The position numbers were made by a program, and so were the translations under genes. This document shows, in pieces, positions 3,891 through 14,570 of a stretch of 17,578 nucleotides of DNA; within the stretch, counting starts at the first letter, position 1; every line of letters begins with the position of its first letter. A model generated the notes under the pieces. It saw only the letters and a list, made by a program, of their open reading frames with translations. It searched no databases and had not been told where the DNA came from. Source of the stretch: a virus; the UHGV virus genome UHGV-0168812; one strand, given 5' to 3'.

Positions 3891-4502
3891 TTATCTTTTT
3901 TTAACACGCTTTCGAGTCCTTTTAGATTTTTCCTTAAGATATTCCGCAAGTTTATCCTCATCATTATTAAATTGAGATAAAAGCTCATGCTCGCAATTAA
4001 GTGCTTTACTCGCATAAGTTCCATATAGTTTCTTTCTTGCTAGTGCTGCTATGAATGCTGCATCTTCTTTGCTATCGAAATACCCTAACGATATTGTCTT
4101 ATTTTTATAACCAACATAAGACTTCCACCTGCCAGTTGTCTTATCCCAAGACACTCCAATCGCACCGGATGTGTTTAACCTATTCCCTACAATGTTTCTT
4201 GCATTCTGCTCCTCTGTTGCCAGTCTTAGATTTGAAATCCTATTGTCAAGTCTGTTCCCATTTACATGATCAATAAACTTAGGAGGCCATTTTTTGTATA
4301 CATAGAACCAAGCAAGTCTATGCGCATAATACAAAACATTATTTATGCTAATGCATATATAACCACCACTAACACCTCCAGCAATACTACCTTTTACTCT
4401 TACTACTGAATTTGTTTTTAGCCATTTAAATATTCCTGTTTCTGAGTCATATGATAATGTTGACAGAAGCTCATCGTGATCAATTAGTTTTTTTATTCGC
4501 AT
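3891..4502 (-). CDS. HNH homing endonuclease with C-terminal AP2-like DNA-binding domain, 203 aa
   Basis: ORF track 203 aa with HRLAWFYVYKKW...IDHVNGNRLDNRISNLRLATEEQNARN (HNH motif) and GVSWDKTTGRWKSYVGYKNKTISLGYFDSKEDAA (AP2-like); visibly AT-rich relative to flanks. Confidence 0.85.
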   Translation of the reverse strand: MRIKKLIDHDELLSTLSYDSETGIFKWLKTNSVVRVKGSIAGGVSGGYICISINNVLYYAHRLAWFYVYKKWPPKFIDHVNGNRLDNRISNLRLATEEQNARNIVGNRLNTSGAIGVSWDKTTGRWKSYVGYKNKTISLGYFDSKEDAAFIAALARKKLYGTYASKALNCEHELLSQFNNDEDKLAEYLKEKSKRTRKRVKKR

Positions 4503-4584: not shown

Positions 4585-6465
4585 TTAATACTCCGTCACG
4601 TTTTCCTGTCGCCACGCCTCGTCATATTCCGATTTCGGCATATTGGCGATGTAGCTATATGGCGATCCTGATTCAAGTTGCAGGAACTGGTGCGATTGCT
4701 CGTCAAGGAACAACGGGACACCACCTTCCCAACCTTCGCCGTTACGTTGTTTTTCAAGCATCAAAACAGATGCCGGAGACACCAGTAGCTGTTCGTCCTT
4801 CTCTGACATCTGTTCACCGCTTTGAACTCTCTGTAACGCTCTCTCGCGAGCCTTGTTACGCCAGATGATAAAAAGGTTGTCTGTCAGGTCTGTTATCGCT
4901 CCAGAGCCTTTTACGTCCATTTTCCCGGTTGGTTTTTCTTCGCTGTCTCCTTTTCGCGAGTGAGTAACGAGAATGACGTGGGAGTTTGTTTTGTTTTTGA
5001 AGTCGCAAATCGAGTCAACAAACGCCTTCTGCCCGTTATAGTCATCGTCGCCTATGCCACATTTCATCAGGCTGTCGATGATGAATAACTGGATCCCGTA
5101 TCGGCGGCGAGCGTAGTCGAATATTTCGATCAGCCTGTCGGCTTTCGCCGTTCCGGTCAGGCCAAACACCCAAAGTCTTTCGTCATAAAATTTAAATGCA
5201 GAGTCAATTTCCAGCACTGGCGGCATCTTGCAGCACGTCGCCTGACGGGTAAGGCGCTTAAGGAGAATACCAGGCTTCAGCTCAAGTGACGCGATGCACG
5301 TCTTCACACCCTGACGCATTGCCTCAAGTGCCATATGCCCGACAACCTCCGTTTTTCCGTGACCGTTCACCCCATTGACCAGCGTCAACTCTGCCTCACG
5401 GAACTGGAATTTATCTGCCAGAGATTCCCACGGTGGATTAAACAGATACTGCTGCTTGCCGTAGAAAGCGTTGATAGTGTCCTGGTAAAACTCTCGCGCG
5501 CTGTAGAGTTCTTCAGGATCGAAGTAGGATGCCGTGCCGATGTACTGCCAGATTTCATCCTCGGTAACACCGTTCATCAGGCATTCGTTGATGTCTTTGT
5601 ACGGCAGAGTAACAAGACGGCAACGATGTTCACCGAGTCGGCTTGCGATTTCCCTTGCGGCTTCACGACCAACATCATCAACGTCCATCGAGATGAATAT
5701 TTCCTCAAACCTGTCGAGGTTGTGATACTCAAACTCAATCCACTGTTGCTTAGCGCCTTTCCCGCCACCAAACGGCACGGATAACGCCGAGATGCCGTAT
5801 TGCGCATAGCTCATACAATCAATTTCGCCTTCGCAAAGCACAACCGCCCTCACGCCAGCGTCCAGAGCCTGCCATCCGAACAGGCAAGGTTCGCAATCAC
5901 CTTCTGCCATAATGACTTTCTTCCCGTCCGGGCGCTCAGTGCTGATTCGCTTGACCTGCAACAACTCACCATCGCGTTTGTACGGAATCACCAGAGCATC
6001 CAGTTCCCGCTCTCCATTCCACACCTTGCCGCTGACAACCTCGTAGCGCTTTACGATTTCTGGCGATATGCCACGCGATTGCAGGTACTCAAGATGGGAT
6101 TCTGTTCTGGTAACGTAGCGGGCGATTTTCTTGCGATCAGGTCTGGAGAATTTCTTCTCACGTCTGGCATCGAAATGGTGATCGTCATCCTTGATACCGA
6201 GAAATGCTTTCGCTTCCTGCATAGCCTGATGCAGGTTAATTCCACGACATGCCATCCACAAATCAAGCATGTCACCGCCGTCTCCCTCAGCGAAATCAGC
6301 CCATTTTTTCTTGCCGCTAAGGTTGACCTTAAGGCTGTTTCCCTTGTCACCGTTGACGTTACCGGCAACCCACTCATGCCCCTCTTTCTTGCCATTTGGC
6401 AACAGGTGCGGAGCCACCCTGTCAACCTGCGCCCAAAGCAGGTCGCTAAGTTCACTTGGCCTCAT
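4585..6465 (-). CDS. Bifunctional DNA primase / replicative helicase (Toprim plus DnaB-like ATPase), 626 aa
   Basis: ORF track 626 aa; Toprim-like VVLCEGEIDCMSYAQYG...FISMDVDDVGREAA; Walker A LVNGVNGHGKTE and Walker B-like LFIIDSLMK in the C-terminal half. Confidence 0.9.
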   Translation of the reverse strand: MRPSELSDLLWAQVDRVAPHLLPNGKKEGHEWVAGNVNGDKGNSLKVNLSGKKKWADFAEGDGGDMLDLWMACRGINLHQAMQEAKAFLGIKDDDHHFDARREKKFSRPDRKKIARYVTRTESHLEYLQSRGISPEIVKRYEVVSGKVWNGERELDALVIPYKRDGELLQVKRISTERPDGKKVIMAEGDCEPCLFGWQALDAGVRAVVLCEGEIDCMSYAQYGISALSVPFGGGKGAKQQWIEFEYHNLDRFEEIFISMDVDDVGREAAREIASRLGEHRCRLVTLPYKDINECLMNGVTEDEIWQYIGTASYFDPEELYSAREFYQDTINAFYGKQQYLFNPPWESLADKFQFREAELTLVNGVNGHGKTEVVGHMALEAMRQGVKTCIASLELKPGILLKRLTRQATCCKMPPVLEIDSAFKFYDERLWVFGLTGTAKADRLIEIFDYARRRYGIQLFIIDSLMKCGIGDDDYNGQKAFVDSICDFKNKTNSHVILVTHSRKGDSEEKPTGKMDVKGSGAITDLTDNLFIIWRNKARERALQRVQSGEQMSEKDEQLLVSPASVLMLEKQRNGEGWEGGVPLFLDEQSHQFLQLESGSPYSYIANMPKSEYDEAWRQENVTEY

Positions 6466-8345: not shown

Positions 8346-9053
8346 ATGGTTCAGAATGAAAAAGTGCGCAAAGAATTCGCCCAGCGGCTAGCGCAAGCCT
8401 GTAAAGAAGCTGGTCTTGATGAACATGGTAGGGGAATGGCTATAGCCCGTGCCCTTTCTCTTTCGTCCAAAGGCGTTAGCAAATGGTTTAATGCTGAGTC
8501 TTTACCGCGTCAGGAAAAAATGAATGCGCTTGCGAAATTTCTAAACGTTGATGTTGTTTGGCTTCAGCACGGCACTTCGTTAAATGGAGCGAATGATGAA
8601 GATACTCTTTCATTTGTTGGCAAATTAAAAAAAGGGTTAGTGCGCGTGGTTGGTGAGGCAATTCTTGGTGTTGATGGTGCCATCGAGATGACCGAAGAGC
8701 GCGATGGGTGGCTCAAAATTTATAGCGATGATCCAGATGCCTTTGGCCTTCGTGTGAAAGGAGACAGCATGTGGCCCAGAATAAAATCAGGAGAATATGT
8801 ACTCATTGAGCCTAACACCAAAGTATTCCCGGGTGATGAGGTGTTTGTCAGAACCGTTGAAGGACACAACATGATTAAGGTTCTTGGCTATGACAGAGAT
8901 GGAGAATACCAATTTACAAGCATCAACCAAGACCACAGGCCTATAACGTTGCCTTATCATCAAGTAGCAAAGGTGGAGTATGTAGCTGGTATTCTGAAGC
9001 AATCTCGCCATCTGGATGACATCGAGGCAAGGGAGTGGCTGAAAAGTTCGTGA
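8346..9053 (+). CDS. cI: CI-like prophage repressor (N-terminal HTH, C-terminal S24 LexA-like peptidase), 235 aa
   Basis: ORF track 235 aa; HTH in first 70 aa; C-terminal GDSMWP serine motif and downstream Lys typical of autocleaving repressors. Confidence 0.9.
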   Translation: MVQNEKVRKEFAQRLAQACKEAGLDEHGRGMAIARALSLSSKGVSKWFNAESLPRQEKMNALAKFLNVDVVWLQHGTSLNGANDEDTLSFVGKLKKGLVRVVGEAILGVDGAIEMTEERDGWLKIYSDDPDAFGLRVKGDSMWPRIKSGEYVLIEPNTKVFPGDEVFVRTVEGHNMIKVLGYDRDGEYQFTSINQDHRPITLPYHQVAKVEYVAGILKQSRHLDDIEAREWLKSS

Positions 9054-9113: not shown

Positions 9114-9455
9114 ATGGCGTTCACTGACCTTGAATATCAAGCGGTCAAAAAAGAAGTTCACCAATTCATTGAAAGCATAAGGCCGCCTGAACATATCCGC
9201 AATGAACTGGATATTGTTTATAGCATCAATGACCAAACGATAGATATCGGCGAACAGCGCCCCGTGTGGCAGGGCAACCCAGGTGAAACAAACATCCTGC
9301 CATCAGCAAGAATCAAGTACATACGTTCTCTGGATAGATGGAAAATCTATTGGATGCGGAAGGATATGAAATGGCATCAGTACAGTACTGAACTTTCGCT
9401 GACTGATGCGCTTGAGCTTGTGCGTGCTGACCCGGATTGCTGCTTCTTCGGATGA
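9114..9455 (+). CDS. Small conserved protein of unknown function downstream of cI, 113 aa (possibly DUF3024-like)
   Basis: ORF track 113 aa; strong SD GAGGAGG before ATG; W/Y-rich segment RWKIYWMRKDMKWHQY; family name is an unverified recollection. Confidence 0.6.
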   Translation: MAFTDLEYQAVKKEVHQFIESIRPPEHIRNELDIVYSINDQTIDIGEQRPVWQGNPGETNILPSARIKYIRSLDRWKIYWMRKDMKWHQYSTELSLTDALELVRADPDCCFFG

Positions 9456-9645
9456 GTGAAGAGACATTTTGGTGATGGATGGTCGCAGAAGTGCGGCCTT
9501 TAATGTAATCGAAGAAAAGTAATCCTTGTAAAACTTGATTTGACTGTATTGTCACAAAGAAAGGAATCAACGATCGTTTCTTGGGTCTTGATTTGTTTTG
9601 ACGATCAAATTAGTATTGCCTCATCAACTGTATGAGGCTTTTTTT

Positions 9646-10179
9646 ATGCAAACCAAAAGCTACACCATCAAAGCATTTCAGGACTTCTTACAGATGCTTC
9701 CTGAGCTTGGTATCGTCAATGATGCTACAGCCCGCAATCTCCGTGACTCTTCCCTGCGCCTTCTTACTGTTCTTGGGTCGGATTTCACCGATGCCGATAT
9801 CCGTGATTATAGCGTTGCCAACTTAGCAAGTTCGTACGCAGACTCAGCAGAAAGCAAACCCTCTGAATCATCTTTGCAGGCATACAAAAGCCGGATGCAA
9901 AGTGCTATTGATAAATTTATCTCCTACCAGAATGGTGAGATTAATGTGTCAGTTGGTGATGTAAATAAAAAAAAGGAGCGTAAAAAGATGGCACCTAAGA
10001 AGAAGGCGGTAGCTGACGTACAGGTTGGTGTAAAAACATTTGAACTGCCGATTCCATTGCGCGGAGATCTTATCGTCACCATTGGCAACCTGCCTCGCGA
10101 CCTGACAAAAGATGAAGCCAAGCGTATCAGTCTGATTGTGGAATCTTTTGCGATGATTGATGGCGGAACAAAAGAATAA
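9646..10179 (+). CDS. Hypothetical protein, about 178 aa, with central Lys-rich linker
   Basis: Track ORF starts at TTG 9598; ATG at 9646 with GAGG upstream preferred; NKKKERKKMAPKKK linker separating two domains; followed directly by a terminator. Confidence 0.6.
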   Translation: MQTKSYTIKAFQDFLQMLPELGIVNDATARNLRDSSLRLLTVLGSDFTDADIRDYSVANLASSYADSAESKPSESSLQAYKSRMQSAIDKFISYQNGEINVSVGDVNKKKERKKMAPKKKAVADVQVGVKTFELPIPLRGDLIVTIGNLPRDLTKDEAKRISLIVESFAMIDGGTKE

Positions 10180-10204
10180 AGCCCCGAGGGAACGGGGCTT
10201 TTTG
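10180..10204 (+). terminator. Intrinsic terminator ending the cI-side operon (tImm-like)
   Basis: GCCCCG-AGGGAA-CGGGGC hairpin (10181-10198) followed by TTTTT. Confidence 0.7.
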
Positions 10205-10352
10205 GGTCGGAAATATATCCAGTATTTCCGAAGTGTATGGAGGATTACCTACCGCTACACCCTTGGCAACCGCAAGCCAAGGATAGCGGTTCTCCCAACA
10301 AACTACAACCTGTTCGGGTAAACAGGCTGTATACAAAAACAGGAGAAAAGCT

Positions 10353-10487
10353 ATGGCTCACGATGTTAATCGCGATGACTTCATCTACGAACACGACAAG
10401 CCGGTTTATGTGCGCAGTTACTGCCGCATACGTTTCGGTGAGCTCGAACATGTTCGTCAGCACTTCCGCTCTTATCCGAGCTGCTGA
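10353..10487 (+). CDS. Small ORF, 44 aa, hypothetical
   Basis: AGGAG 7 nt before ATG; MAHDVNRDDFIYEHDKPVYVRSYCRIRFGELEHVRQHFRSYPSC; followed by terminator; competing 72-aa antisense ORF exists. Confidence 0.4.
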   Translation: MAHDVNRDDFIYEHDKPVYVRSYCRIRFGELEHVRQHFRSYPSC

Positions 10488-10505
10488 AAATAACTAAATC
10501 TCAAA

Positions 10506-10531
10506 CCCGGCCTCAGCGCCGGGTTTTCTTT
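10506..10531 (+). terminator. Intrinsic terminator
   Basis: CCCGGC-CTCAGC-GCCGGG hairpin followed by TTTTCTTT. Confidence 0.65.
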
Positions 10532-10705
10532 GCCTCTCGATCCCCCACCTAAAAACACATAACCAATTGTATTTATTGATGTAACTCGCTAAACCATGCA
10601 GTTCTGATCCCTGCCGCATAACCCTCATCAGCCACATTTTCAAAAATAAATTTCCTTATATATCAGAATCATACTTCGTAGAGTTAATAAATCACCAAAA
10701 TTCGT

Positions 10706-10745
10706 ACCAATAGTTCTTGATAATATCGAACTATTGGTTCATTAT
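10706..10745 (+). promoter_or_regulatory. Putative pL promoter with overlapping operator palindrome
   Basis: ACCAATAGTTC (10706-10716) and GAACTATTGGT (10728-10738) form a perfect 11-bp inverted repeat; TTGATA (10717-10722), 17-nt spacer, CATTAT (10740-10745) reads toward N. Confidence 0.45.
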
Positions 10746-10814
10746 TATCGTCATCAGCAGGACGCATTACTCACCATGGCGGTGAATATACAACGATTCA
10801 AGCAAGAATCTACG

Positions 10815-10829
10815 GCGCTGACAAAGCGC
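10815..10829 (+). promoter_or_regulatory. nutL boxB hairpin, P22 type
   Basis: GCGCTGACAAAGCGC: 5-bp stem with GACAA loop, matching the P22 boxB as I recall it; about 115 nt upstream of the N-like start. Confidence 0.55.
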
Positions 10830-10944
10830 GATAACCAAAGTGAACTTTGGGATGTGGCAAGCGAGAAAGGGTAAAACGTGAAGATGGCCCTGACTTGTGC
10901 GGCTGGTTACCGCCCACATCACCAAAGTTCATCAGGAGGTCACC

Positions 10945-11328
10945 ATGACACGCAGAACAGCTTTCAAAGGTTCATCAGCAGCTCGTCGCCGTGAACGTTT
11001 AAAGGCGCAAGCCATTGCACAGGGTGTTGAAGCTCGTGAAGAGGTTATCAGTTCAGAGAAACTTCATCGCCCTACCCTCAGTCTGGCACAGATTCAGGCT
11101 AAAGGTAAACACGAAACGCCTGAGCGCATAGAAGACGCTAAGCCAATTAAGTTCATGGCACAGGACGTGATCTGGCAACAGAAAGAATACAGACGCAATC
11201 TGGAGAGAGCGGCCATTGTGTACGCGAATGAGTTTGGACATAAGCAACCAGAAACTGGTGTATGTCTTCCAGATGTAGCTCTTTACGCAGCAGGATACCG
11301 GAAATCAAAACAACTGACGGCGAGATGA
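10945..11328 (+). CDS. N: N-like transcription antiterminator with arginine-rich motif, about 127 aa
   Basis: Start at ATG 10945 with AGGAGG upstream; MTRRTAFKGSSAARRRERLKAQ arginine-rich N-terminus; C-terminus ...DVALYAAGYRKSKQLTAR resembles the C-terminus of P22 gene 24 / N-family proteins. Confidence 0.8.
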   Translation: MTRRTAFKGSSAARRRERLKAQAIAQGVEAREEVISSEKLHRPTLSLAQIQAKGKHETPERIEDAKPIKFMAQDVIWQQKEYRRNLERAAIVYANEFGHKQPETGVCLPDVALYAAGYRKSKQLTAR

Positions 11329-11386
11329 CTTGTGTTGGTCGCCAGAAAATGAAATTAGGCAGCAAACCACTTATTTGAGGTGAGAT

Positions 11387-11857
11387 ATGACAAAATCATG
11401 GAGCGTACCTTTTCCTGAATCAGAAGCTGAACATGATGGAATGCCTGTTTTCTGGAGATTCCAGGCGACAGTTGAAGAAGATGGGATCAAAATACTCGCA
11501 CTTCAATATATAGCTTTTCATCAGACAGAGCATTATGCATGGTTGGTTCCTGCGCATTGGATTGTTAATTTTAAACCAGCACCAAATCAGTGGTTACAGG
11601 AATGGAAACAAAGGAGAAATAGATATGCAATTAAGAAAGTAGCAAAAAATGCAGAAAGATCTTTTGCATTCCCGACGAAGAAACTTGCCATTGAAAGTTT
11701 ATTGCGCCGAAAGAAATACCATTTGATGAGAATCAAACAAGATTTGGCTGTTGTATCAACTCTTGTTGATGGGATGAAAAATATTGATACATCAACACCA
11801 GATATTGAATATAACTTTGGACACAACCAAGAAACAGAAAATTGGGTATTTTATTAG
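11387..11857 (+). CDS. Hypothetical protein, 156 aa, AT-rich gene immediately after N
   Basis: ORF track 156 aa; SD GAGGTGA; no recognisable motif; lower GC than neighbours; followed by a strong terminator. Confidence 0.6.
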   Translation: MTKSWSVPFPESEAEHDGMPVFWRFQATVEEDGIKILALQYIAFHQTEHYAWLVPAHWIVNFKPAPNQWLQEWKQRRNRYAIKKVAKNAERSFAFPTKKLAIESLLRRKKYHLMRIKQDLAVVSTLVDGMKNIDTSTPDIEYNFGHNQETENWVFY

Positions 11858-11961
11858 TACGAATAAGCACTGTGTATTCATTCCAACGAGTGAATACACG
11901 GAGCAATGTCGCTCGTAACTAAACAGGAGTCGACTTGTTCTGATTATTGGAAATCTTCTTT

Positions 11962-11986
11962 GCCCTCCAGTGTGAGGGCTTTTTTA
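11962..11986 (+). terminator. Intrinsic terminator (tL1-like)
   Basis: GCCCTC-CAGTGT-GAGGGC hairpin followed by TTTTTT. Confidence 0.7.
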
Positions 11987-12051
11987 TATGCATACCAATA
12001 ACGCTTAACTAGAGGCGTTTTCGTTATGCAATCAAACAGAAGGAGCATCCT

Positions 12052-12222
12052 ATGCAACAGTTCGCTATTGCAGGGGCGGCATCGGTTCGCCCTTTCAACC
12101 CGATTTTATCGGTACAGCATTCACGAAAAAATATTTTAACCGGAGCAGACTTTAAACAACCAAGAATGAAAAGTTTGCTCGAAAAGCTTTGGGATATTTT
12201 GAAACAACAAGGCCGCCCATGA
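12052..12222 (+). CDS. Small ORF, 56 aa, hypothetical
   Basis: AGGAG before ATG; MQQFAIAGAASVRPFNPILSVQHSRKNILTGADFKQPRMKSLLEKLWDILKQQGRP; stop overlaps next start (ATGA). Confidence 0.4.
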   Translation: MQQFAIAGAASVRPFNPILSVQHSRKNILTGADFKQPRMKSLLEKLWDILKQQGRP

Positions 12223-12476: not shown

Positions 12477-13184
12477 ATGGATTTAAATAAATTCGATGAG
12501 CCATTCAGCCCTGAAGATATTGAATGGCGAATACAGCAAAGCGGTAAAACACGCGATGGCAAGGTGTGGGCTATGGTGCTGGCTTATGTCACGAACCGGG
12601 CAATCATGAAACGCCTGGACGATGTTTGCGGCAAAGCAGGATGGCGCAATGAATACCGCGATATTCCCAACAACGGCGGCGTTGAATGCGGCATATCAAT
12701 AAAGATTGATTCCGAATGGGTAACCAAATGGGATGCTGCTGAAAACACGCAGGTAGAAGCCGTCAAAGGTGGTCGTTCCGGTGCAATGAAGCGTGCTGCC
12801 GTTCAGTGGGGAATCGGTCGGTATCTGTATAACCTTGAGGAAGGTTTCGCACAAACATCTCTCGATAAAAAGCAGGGGTGGCACAGGGCAAAACTGAAGG
12901 ATGGAACAGGATTTTACTGGCTCCCTCCATCGCTGCCGGGATGGGCAATCCCAGCATCAGATAACAAACCATCACCAGAAAATACCAACCAGAAATCTCT
13001 ATCGGTTGACTGCGAACGAATCCTGAAAGACTTCAGCGATTATGCTTCGACAGAAACTGACAAGAAAAAACTCATCGAACGTTATCAGCATGACTGGCAA
13101 TTAATGGCTGGCAATGAGGATGCGCAGGCTAAATGCGTTCAGGTAATGAACATCAGAGTTAACGAACTAAAACAGGCGGCATAA
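12477..13184 (+). CDS. Rad52-family single-strand annealing protein (Sak-like recombinase), 235 aa
   Basis: ORF track 235 aa; segment GGRSGAMKRAAVQWGIGRYLYNLEEGFA resembles the conserved core of phage Rad52/22-type annealing proteins; sits with ssb and an exonuclease. Confidence 0.8.
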   Translation: MDLNKFDEPFSPEDIEWRIQQSGKTRDGKVWAMVLAYVTNRAIMKRLDDVCGKAGWRNEYRDIPNNGGVECGISIKIDSEWVTKWDAAENTQVEAVKGGRSGAMKRAAVQWGIGRYLYNLEEGFAQTSLDKKQGWHRAKLKDGTGFYWLPPSLPGWAIPASDNKPSPENTNQKSLSVDCERILKDFSDYASTETDKKKLIERYQHDWQLMAGNEDAQAKCVQVMNIRVNELKQAA

Positions 13185-13700
13185 ATGGCAAGCAGAGGCG
13201 TAAATAAGGTGATCATTATTGGTCGCCTTGGGCATGATCCAGAAATCAGATATTCGCCATCAGGAACGGCATTTGCAAACCTTACAGTTGCTACGTCAGA
13301 ACAATGGCGTGATAAGCAAACTGGAGAGCAAAAGGAGCAGACGGAGTGGCACCGTGTGGTAATGAGCGGGAAACTGGCAGAAATTGCCAGCGAATATCTG
13401 CGAAAAGGCTCTGAGGTTTATCTTGAAGGCAAATTGCGGACAAGAAAATGGCAGGATCAAAGCGGACAGGATCGGTTCACTACCGAAGTTATCGTGGGCG
13501 TTGGTGGAACCATGCAAATGCTTGGTGGCAAGCAAGGAAGCAATGAACAGTCTTCACCTCAGCGAAATAACGGCCAGCAACAAAGACAGCAATCTCAGCA
13601 GCAGGGGAATCACAGCGAACCACCTATGGATTTTGACGACGATATACCCTTTGCGCCAGTAACTCTCCCCTTCCCTCGTCACGCTATTCACGCAATTTAA
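13185..13700 (+). CDS. ssb: Single-stranded DNA-binding protein with 15-aa extension after the DDDIPF motif, 171 aa
   Basis: OB-fold N-terminus [44 protein letters not shown]..., Gly/Gln-rich linker, [11 protein letters not shown] followed by [15 protein letters not shown] before the stop. Confidence 0.9.
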
Positions 13701-13708
13701 GGACTTAC

Positions 13709-14257
13709 ATGAATCACTTAATGGTTGACCTTGAAACAATGGGCAACGGGCCATACGCGCCAGTTATTTCTATTGGGGCGGTATTCTTTGACCCGAATAC
13801 CGGAGAAACAGGAGAAGAGTTCTCGGTAAATATCTCGCTTGAGTCATCAATGCGATATCGGGCGCGTCCTGACGCTTCAACGATTTTATGGTGGCTGGAA
13901 CAGAGTGAAGAAGCCAGAAAATCGCTAACCAGCAACACTCAGGAGCTTTCAACGGCTCTTTCATGGTTATCTGAATTCATCATAAAGAACGCTAACCACA
14001 AATTCGTTCAGGTTTGGGGGAATGGAGCATCATTTGACTGCGTTATTCTCCGCAACAGTTATTCGCTGACAGGGCAGCCAGTTCCGTGGCAGTGGTGGAA
14101 TGACCGCGACGTAAGAACAATCGTCGAACTTGGGAAGGTAATAGGATTCGACCCTAAGCGAGATATGCCATTCAAAGGAACTCGCCACAACGCGCTTGAT
14201 GATGCCATTCACCAAGCCAAATACGTTTCAGCGATCTGGAAAAAGTTAGCTAAATAA
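13709..14257 (+). CDS. DnaQ-like (DEDDh) 3'-5' exonuclease, 182 aa
   Basis: ORF track 182 aa; MVDLETMG (Exo I D-x-E) and HNALDDA (Exo III H-x4-D) motifs. Confidence 0.85.
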   Translation: MNHLMVDLETMGNGPYAPVISIGAVFFDPNTGETGEEFSVNISLESSMRYRARPDASTILWWLEQSEEARKSLTSNTQELSTALSWLSEFIIKNANHKFVQVWGNGASFDCVILRNSYSLTGQPVPWQWWNDRDVRTIVELGKVIGFDPKRDMPFKGTRHNALDDAIHQAKYVSAIWKKLAK

Positions 14258-14273
14258 TCAACAGGAGAAAACC

Positions 14274-14570
14274 ATGCCAGCGCCTCTGTATGGTGCGGAT
14301 GACGCGCGCCGCTGTTCCGGCAATTCCGTATCGGAGGTGCTGGATAAGTTCAGAAAAAACTACGATCGGATAATGTCGCTACCGCAGGAAACGAAAGAGG
14401 AAAAGGAATTTCGCCACTGTATATGGCTTGCAGAGAAAGAAGAACGAGAGCGAATTTACCAGACATCAATCCGACCATTCCGCAAAGCCACATATACCCA
14501 CTTCCCTGAACATATCGACCCGCGCCTGCGTAATTACCGCTCACGTTATGGTGCTATCAGTAATGACTGA
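14274..14570 (+). CDS. Hypothetical protein, 98 aa
   Basis: ORF track; AGGAG SD before ATG; same strand and tight spacing with neighbours. Confidence 0.6.

Follow-up and report, generated by a model that had tools for sequence, protein, structure and literature searches.

In phage lambda, the spacer between ral and ea10 encodes PreS (also called LPR1), an Hfq-dependent small RNA (sRNA) of ~88 nt that is processed to ~68 nt and whose 3′ end is the terminator tL2a; it is seen within 10 min of induction, is absent in lysogens, promotes translation of dnaN and aids the replication of lambda DNA (PMC12197685; bioRxiv 10.1101/2024.10.31.621285). PreS is conserved at at least 92% identity in 2,537 genomes (PMC12197685; bioRxiv 10.1101/2024.10.31.621285), the criterion being at least 92% identity to lambda LPR1 with at most 3 gaps (bioRxiv 10.1101/2024.10.31.621285). 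Here we describe the corresponding part of the leftward (pL) operon in the virus genome UHGV-0168812, a stretch of 17,578 nt referred to below as the window, in which a 156-residue open reading frame (ORF), the counterpart of HK97 gp45 and called gp45 here, lies between the antiterminator gene N and a PreS homologue (Table 1). We think it somewhat probable that the gp45 cassette and PreS/tL2a are two separate units of the pL operon, and that gp45 acts as a lytic counter-defence or host-takeover factor. Part of this is already known: gp45 is catalogued as a hypothetical protein, the terminator is a published sRNA, and the mosaic logic is classical for lambdoid phages. New here are the exact boundaries of the cassette, its equivalence to the ral slot, the identification of the terminator with PreS, the breadth of the gp45 family and a confident model of the protein.

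The gp45 cassette and the PreS element

The gp45 ORF is a genuine, conserved gene. Its stop-free run of 157 codons was matched in only 2/2000 mononucleotide shuffles of 11340–11990, and the probability of finding no stop in 156 codons is 4e-6 at the composition of the gp45 interval. Codon alignments across five genera give ratios of nonsynonymous to synonymous substitution rates (dN/dS) of 0.08–0.17, with synonymous sites saturated between genera and protein identity still ~60%, which implies strong purifying selection on the protein; 40 residues are invariant across 21 gp45 sequences. An earlier note on this DNA had described a 156-residue ORF with a good Shine–Dalgarno sequence (SD) directly after N, more AT-rich than its flanks, and both statements hold. 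The SD (GAGGTGA, read in the sequence) stands 5–6 nt upstream of the ATG, and the preceding gene is N (PF25694, E 2e-15), annotated as such in HK97 and phi24B. The GC content of gp45 (36.5%, and 28.0% at third codon positions, GC3) compares with 48.4% for N, 43.3% for cIII and 46.8% for the whole window, and ranks at the 2.9th percentile among all 471-nt segments of the stretch. A consensus scan, which weak promoters could escape, found no sigma-70-like site in 11329–11386 or in the 3′ part of N.

On its left, gp45 begins at a joint shared with phage 21 and DE3 (imm21); in DE3 the ATG of this joint starts orf28-ral, and the PreS element comes after ral. On its right, 10 nt past the gp45 stop codon, a lambda-like element begins that runs through the terminator and in which 11867–11990 is 96.8% identical to lambda 33920–34045, the spacer between ral and ea10. 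With the left joint and PreS both common to phage 21/DE3, gp45 is therefore a start-to-stop-codon replacement of orf28-ral. The 3′ element also occurs in HK620, HK022, the mEp phages and Salmonella phages, following ral in lambda and preceding cIII in HK620. The slot between N and PreS is filled by gp45 family members (156 aa) in the window, HK97, 933W and phi24B, by orf28 and ral in phage 21 and DE3, by sieB, orf28 and ral in lambda, by hkaQ and the sieB-like hkaP in HK620, by a phrog_2471 protein (83–86 aa) in 1717 and mEp234, and by an Nmad5-domain protein (207 aa) in mEp235. The earlier suggestion that this position typically holds host-takeover or exclusion genes thus describes the slot well in lambda, DE3 and HK620. 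The slot cargo genes that were measured have 39–43% GC, with gp45 lowest at 36.5%; of the cargo in lambda and HK620, sieB alone falls under 40%.

The association of the cassette with its surroundings was followed in IMG/VR, where 80 near-identical gp45 loci (99%-identical) were collected. PreS lies downstream in 71/72 loci with enough flank, and in 63 of these the spacing is the same 10 nt. Upstream of gp45, 40/77 loci have an N allele that is recognisably similar, the left joint is retained with no DNA-detectable window-type N upstream in 37/77, and the same cIII follows in only 9/70. The layout is ordinary lambdoid mosaicism, for which cargo exchange at gene boundaries is textbook, and the findings will not surprise a lambdoid-phage specialist.

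By sequence identity, the element at 11898–11985 is a PreS homologue ending in tL2a. Its 5′ end was placed by counting 88 nt back from the end of the U-run, and the identity of 96.8% over ~125 nt including PreS falls within the published limits of at least 92% identity and at most 3 gaps. The 3′ end is Hfq-type, a GC-rich stem followed by poly-U, and is the same as tL2a: the stem GCCCTC-CAGTGT-GAGGGC at 11962–11979 is followed by T6 (hairpin free energy −11.1 kcal/mol), and the site is annotated as ‘tL2A’ in HK620 (at the aligned position) and as ‘putative terminator’ in HK97. The single-stranded stretch at 11934–11961 is invariant in the alignment of the window with lambda, and the predicted duplex with the MG1655 dnaN leader (AAGAAGAUUUUUCAAAUUUAAUCAGAACA) is the same for both PreS versions. 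They differ by one C-to-T change in the 5′ hairpin (11930) and by 2 nt at the start of the U-run, which abuts the stem in the window (GGGCTTTTTT) and reads GGGCGATTTTTT in lambda. The RNA fold of 11855–11995 is far more stable than that of shuffles (z = −5.2), and the stem-loop of the second, weaker hairpin spans 12000–12019. The copy of Rfam searched gave no family in the window and none around the locus even at E ≤ 1, PreS being undetected there as a family. The gene had been described as enclosed by a strong terminator; that terminator does not belong to the gene but is tL2a, the 3′ end of PreS. Just 5′ of the predicted PreS start there is a perfect 12-bp hairpin (11872–11899) with no U-run after it, which might govern how PreS, or the mRNA ahead of it, is processed or stabilised.

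The region ahead of gp45 has the parts expected of a pL transcript. Its leader is strongly structured (z = −4.2 for 10752–11400) and holds a boxB-like hairpin at 10815–10829 that resembles lambda boxB, GCCCU-GAAAA-AGGGC. No obvious boxA (CGCTCTTA-like) was found upstream of this hairpin in the N leader (10752–10944), and a leader with boxB but no obvious boxA presumably recalls nut sites of the H-19B type. Between pL and 11962 the scan, which addresses intrinsic terminators, found none. The sole other plus-strand terminator-like match from the pL-like promoter to 11962 is a weak 5-bp stem inside N (11247–11259) with no T-run, so the earlier placing of gp45 upstream of the first strong terminator of the leftward operon is consistent with the scan. 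With no intrinsic terminator before gp45, its N-independent, immediate-early expression can reasonably be expected, and it is in this conditional form that the claim of the earlier note that gp45 is made without antitermination stands. There is likewise no tL1-type terminator upstream in the window, so that PreS/tL2a would be the first stop in the operon.

From this arrangement we infer how the region would be expressed. After infection or induction, pL transcripts would pass nutL, N and gp45. In the absence of N protein they would end at tL2a. The resulting N–gp45 mRNA would allow immediate-early synthesis of gp45 alongside N, and its 3′ end would yield PreS. In lambda, PreS pairs with the leader of host dnaN, increases synthesis of the beta clamp and favours phage replication. 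Once N is present, transcription would extend beyond the terminator to cIII and kil and to the genes for the Rad52-type annealase, SSB, an exonuclease and Abc2. In these phages PreS would be the first terminated pL product, and its production without N would be a twist on lambda biology.

Table 1. Features of the pL operon of the window from the promoter to cIII
Feature	Position	Strand	Basis and remarks
pL-like sigma-70 promoter (TTGATA-17-CATTAT)	10717–10745	+	Promoter scan
Operator-like palindrome ACCAATAGTTC...GAACTATTGGT, overlapping the pL-like promoter		+	Read in the sequence
boxB-like hairpin GCGCU-GACAA-AGCGC, putative nutL	10815–10829	+	Sequence and RNA fold of the N leader
N antiterminator gene, 127 aa from ATG 10945	10945–11328	+	PF25694 N_peptide, E 2.2e-15; phrog_271, E 6e-37
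Left joint of the cargo slot	11340–11389	+	Intergenic sequence, SD GAGGTGA and ATG; aligned to phage 21/DE3
gp45 ORF, 156 aa	11387 (ATG)–11857 (TAG)	+	phrog_1636 family (HK97 gp45 / 933W L0079 / phi24B vb_24B_11c)
12-bp hairpin (GTGTATTCATTC-CAAC-GAGTGAATACAC)	11872–11899	+	RNA fold; also 3′ of ral in lambda
PreS (LPR1) homologue	11898–11985	+	Identity to lambda; 5′ end approximate
Single-stranded stretch CTTGTTCTGATTATTGGAAATCTTCTTT	11934–11961	+	Complementary to the dnaN leader
tL2a-type intrinsic terminator	11962–11985	+	Terminator scan; 6-bp GC-rich stem, 6-nt loop, U6
Second, weaker terminator-like hairpin (AACGCTTAACTAGAGGCGTT + TTCGTTAT)	12000–12027	+	Scan; aligned with HK620 tL2B
cIII	12052–12222	+	phrog_550, E 1e-22; HK97 annotation; first gene past the terminators, delayed-early

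Comparisons of gp45 with other slot cargo by hhalign covered Ral, hkaQ and the phrog_2471 protein. A relationship to Ral was rejected (probability 0.1% for the family profile against lambda Ral, and no PF11058 match), as was one to hkaQ or phrog_2471, for which there was no similarity. The slot gene of mEp235 (365–988 of locus L019) carries Nmad5, nucleotide modification associated domain 5, a hint that the slot collects genes of DNA-modification or restriction conflicts. In JQ347801.1 (the Shiga-toxin, Stx, phage JLK-2012) a copy of IS629 is annotated inside the matched N-to-PreS interval, and the cargo region may accordingly be disrupted in some lineages.

Elsewhere around the operon, two cargo genes on the repressor strand occupy 9114–10179 (+), between the cI-like repressor gene (8346–9053) and pL, where relatives have rexAB or stk. 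One encodes a DUF3024 protein (9114–9455) and the other a phrog_2602 protein, whose gene probably starts at ATG 9646 because the PHROG match begins at residue 17 of the TTG-started ORF; this ATG directly follows a terminator-like hairpin (9618–9638) and T7. The ~500 nt between this cargo and pL (10180–10700) have no assigned gene; an 86-aa ORF there (10237–10497) has no Pfam or PHROG match, and a terminator-like hairpin lies on the minus strand at 10201–10178. On the far side of cIII, the recombination module at 12477–14570 (+) is an unusual mix of a Rad52/Rad22 annealase (PF04098; 12477–13184), SSB (13185–13700), a protein with an Rv2179c-like 3′-5′ exonuclease domain (13709–14257) and a P22-type Abc2 anti-RecBCD protein (14274–14570).

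Distribution and predicted structure of gp45

The description of gp45 as an orphan gene does not hold: it is HK97 gp45 / 933W L0079 and belongs to a phage family of 86 clusters. The profile phrog_1636 matches it over its full length (residues 1–156 of 156; E 4.4e-111). The gp45 interval is 98.3% identical at the nucleotide level to HK97 gp45 (NP_037731) over 651 nt, and 98% nucleotide identity is also found with 933W (L0079), phi24B (vb_24B_11c), H-19B and many Stx1/Stx2 phages. Among complete E. coli genomes, 598/5,426 (11%) carry gp45, in up to four copies per genome. Full-length homologues with 55–85% identity reside in prophages of Cronobacter, Pectobacterium, Brenneria, Rosenbergiella and Symbiopectobacterium; the Cronobacter homologue is again located between N and cIII, and those of Pectobacterium and Brenneria come last in the operon, next to xis-int.

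The 86 representative clusters come from a profile search against 1.84 billion representative proteins, with a cut-off of E ≤ 1e-3. The distant relatives are mostly 130–160 aa long, share 20–25% identity and span residues ~20–140. When 67 of them were scanned, all 67 matched phrog_1636 and 57/67 matched phrog_13631, and in a reciprocal tblastn search a distant member (P0048) recovered Stx-phage ORFs at E 1e-4. The gp45 of the window thus belongs to a wider gp45-like family that includes phrog_13631, phrog_25384 and unnamed clusters, with the core motif [YF][RK]..G[ILV]..ET...K[RK][IV].K..SRFAF.T...A..L..RK. Two multi-domain profile matches (P0063 and P0080) hit unrelated Pfam families and were set aside as likely artefacts of repeats or coiled coils. 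Distant members are found in Marinobacterium, Pseudomaricurvus, Vibrio and Pseudomonas phages and in metagenomic contigs, always on the early strand, with small unknown genes, SSB, YqaJ/RecE, RecT and C5-methylases as neighbours. Clustering of the neighbours at 20 diverse loci gave no recurring adjacent partner, only SSB, integrase, YqaJ and methylase recurring at variable distances, and gp45 is therefore a stand-alone accessory gene.

As the earlier note had remarked, the protein carries no recognisable motif, and profile searches matched it to no curated family. The best Pfam-A match reaches 12.3 bits (cut-off 22.2), NCBIfam and PADLOC gave none, and the PDB, searched by sequence and by profile, gave none above threshold. 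Across the 67 relatives, Pfam returned four different families, each for one member (E 0.003–0.009), and no credible domain. No homologous lambdoid early protein of established function was encountered: the homologues all lack an assigned function, and the database records of the relatives all read hypothetical, with no other name among the relatives listed.

An AlphaFold2 (AF2) model built with the 67-sequence distant alignment is confident (predicted local distance difference test score, pLDDT, 92.6; predicted template modelling score, pTM, 0.79), whereas one built with only 21 close homologues was unusable (pLDDT 56). gp45 is predicted to be a compact α/β protein with three long antiparallel strands (residues 19–30, 33–46 and 50–55), two short helices (56–61 and 66–74) and, in the C-terminal half, a short strand (83–86), a 33-residue helix (98–130) and a tail. 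A search of BFVD with the model returned 12 matches at E ≤ 1e-3 (4e-7 to 5e-4), all of them uncharacterised phage proteins, among them relatives in Schitoviridae (Achromobacter phiAxp-3) and Ackermannviridae (Erwinia phiEa2809), both of which are virulent families. The predicted fold has no neighbour among solved structures, which together with the confidence of the model makes gp45 a cheap target for structural genomics.

The N- and C-terminal thirds of gp45 are acidic and its core (residues 62–120) is basic, with 17 Lys/Arg residues and an isoelectric point (pI) of 11.1. Positive charge at 73–84 and 109–120 is kept throughout the family, for which the median pI is 9.0, and only Gly33, Glu46, Thr47, Lys87 and Ala101 are near-invariant across the superfamily. 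No catalytic signature or enzyme motif is evident in the sequence or model, and no transmembrane segment is apparent in either on inspection without a dedicated predictor. The string ‘SRFAF.T...A’ had raised the suspicion of an AP2-like DNA-binding module, which was rejected when hhalign against the HNH-AP2 protein of the window gave a probability of 0.4%. The latter protein is encoded by a 203-aa ORF at 3891–4502 (−) with HNH_3 (E 8e-16) and AP2 (E 1e-7) domains and a match to phrog_99 (HNH endonuclease). Within the window only this ORF (GC 34.8%, GC3 25.5%) equals gp45 in AT-richness; it resembles a homing-endonuclease insertion beside the replication gene at 4585–6465.

Candidate roles for gp45

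Taken alone, the protein may be a lytic-cycle binding factor directed at the host or its defences, a tentative assignment to which we give rather less than an even chance. During lytic growth gp45 would bind either nucleic acid or some conserved component of the host or its defences, and would serve counter-defence or host takeover in a manner analogous to Ral in position, not in sequence. Such a role is favoured because the basic core is conserved, catalytic motifs are lacking and relatives occur in virulent phages, and because gp45 is found on the repressed early strand, where it alternates with ral. It is probably one of the earliest proteins to appear on induction and occupies the ral slot, which makes it a sensible candidate for counter-defence or host takeover in Stx phages; roughly every ninth complete E. 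coli genome has the gene, as do most Shiga-toxin phages of the 933W type. A broader proposition, which we regard as doubtful, is that the gp45-like proteins are a widespread new class of early effectors, with a fold absent among solved structures, that neutralise a conserved host component or defence and that in Stx/HK97-like phages would be produced immediate-early, independently of N, with PreS. The class so conceived would span temperate and virulent phages of Gammaproteobacteria, Alpha- and Betaproteobacteria and Bacteroidota.

Several points weigh against a counter-defence or host-takeover role. The gp45 family as a whole does not share the immediate-early placement, which is specific to the E. 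coli lineage; in Pectobacterium and Brenneria the gene adjoins xis-int. Between N and gp45, Rho may terminate transcription or the RNA may be processed. Guilt by position is a weak argument, the cargo of this hot spot spanning both counter-defence (ral) and exclusion (sieB). Finally, a motif search of the supplement text did not find the gp45 family among the 200 accessory genes screened by Silas et al., which included ral. One candidate from that work, orf184 of the ral accessory region, which triggers gop-beta-cII, was considered as a possible gp45 and rejected, its model starting MEALVVERSEDGYW. The PHROG identifiers of gp45 are likewise absent from a machine-learning preprint on anti-defence proteins, and text searches found no paper on L0079 or vb_24B_11c and none on the HK97 gp45 protein.

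The alternative that survives best, although we consider it unlikely, is that gp45 assists in the DNA transactions of the phage, for example as a binder of single-stranded or structured DNA that works with the Rad52/Erf-type annealase, SSB and exonuclease. The conserved basic core would suit such a protein, and early regions of diverse phages hold gp45 together with SSB, a YqaJ/RecE-like exonuclease, RecT and a DNA methylase. Uncharacterised helpers such as Arf and Abc1 have been noted in recombination operons in Casjens-type surveys (PMC12315714), a precedent in its favour. However, gp45 shows no fixed adjacency to recombination genes, which lie about 1.8 to 3.9 kb to either side, and in the E. 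coli phages tL2a/tL2b, cIII and kil stand between it and the Rec module. It also exchanges with ral and sieB, not with genes of that module.

It is improbable that gp45 is a superinfection-exclusion or abortive-infection protein guarding the lysogen in the manner of SieB or Rex. The presence of sieB in lambda and of the sieB-like hkaP in HK620 in the N-to-tL2a interval, together with the AT-rich, moron-like character of gp45, would fit such a function, but both of those genes are on the strand opposite to that of gp45, which is on the pL strand right behind N, on N’s transcript, with no promoter-like site before it in the consensus scan. In lambda the RNA of this region, PreS, is absent from lysogens. 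The protein itself gives no PADLOC match, no transmembrane segment is apparent in its sequence or model as judged without a dedicated predictor, and its structural relatives are found in virulent phage families.

A role for gp45 as an RNA- or transcription-directed regulator, acting on N/Nus antitermination or RNA polymerase or as a partner of Hfq/PreS, is given similarly little weight. It would explain the location between N and PreS, the linkage to PreS in 71/72 loci and the basic core, but distant members are found in phages and at positions that lack N or PreS, and the linkage, observed in loci that are 99% identical, comes from common descent, lambda ral being equally PreS-linked. It is very improbable that the ORF is a passenger, decaying or selfish, that does nothing for the phage. 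Its patchy, accessory occurrence (11% of E. coli genomes) and deviant composition might suggest this, but the dN/dS of 0.08–0.17 with synonymous saturation across five genera, the 40 invariant residues in 21 sequences and the fold predicted to be conserved family-wide (pLDDT 92.6) speak against it.

Relation to known lambdoid systems

The nearest relatives, HK97 gp45, 933W L0079 and phi24B vb_24B_11c, agree with the gene of the window in length and in position after N and before the terminator. There are few gp45 substitutions among them, whereas the upstream immunity region and the genes past the terminator differ, as is usual in mosaics. The sRNA element is shared with lambda in the same way, but the gene 5′ of PreS is gp45 in the window and ral in lambda. 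Like gp45, ral of lambda and phage 21 is a small, AT-rich early cargo gene in this common slot, with an identical SD and ATG (in DE3/phage 21) and an identical PreS/tL2a. In contrast, Ral is a Cys-rich protein of 66 aa and gp45 has 156 aa and no Cys, and the action of Ral on type I restriction-modification systems is, on this comparison, not transferable to gp45.

SieB (lambda, P22 and, as hkaP, HK620) fills the N-to-tL2a interval in lambda and HK620 as gp45 does in the window, but sieB and hkaP lie on the other strand, and no relationship was detected, gp45 having no Pfam or PADLOC match. A moron in the sense of Juhala et al. (2000) is an autonomous promoter–gene–terminator insert of deviant composition. 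gp45 is like a moron in its deviant, AT-rich composition and in its precise, gene-sized insertion between conserved joints. It differs in that no promoter of its own was found by a consensus scan, which weak promoters could escape, and in that its terminator is the shared, older PreS/tL2a, present in lambda, HK620, HK022 and the mEp phages without gp45. gp45 would be expressed within the pL operon, and not autonomously in the lysogen as a moron would be.

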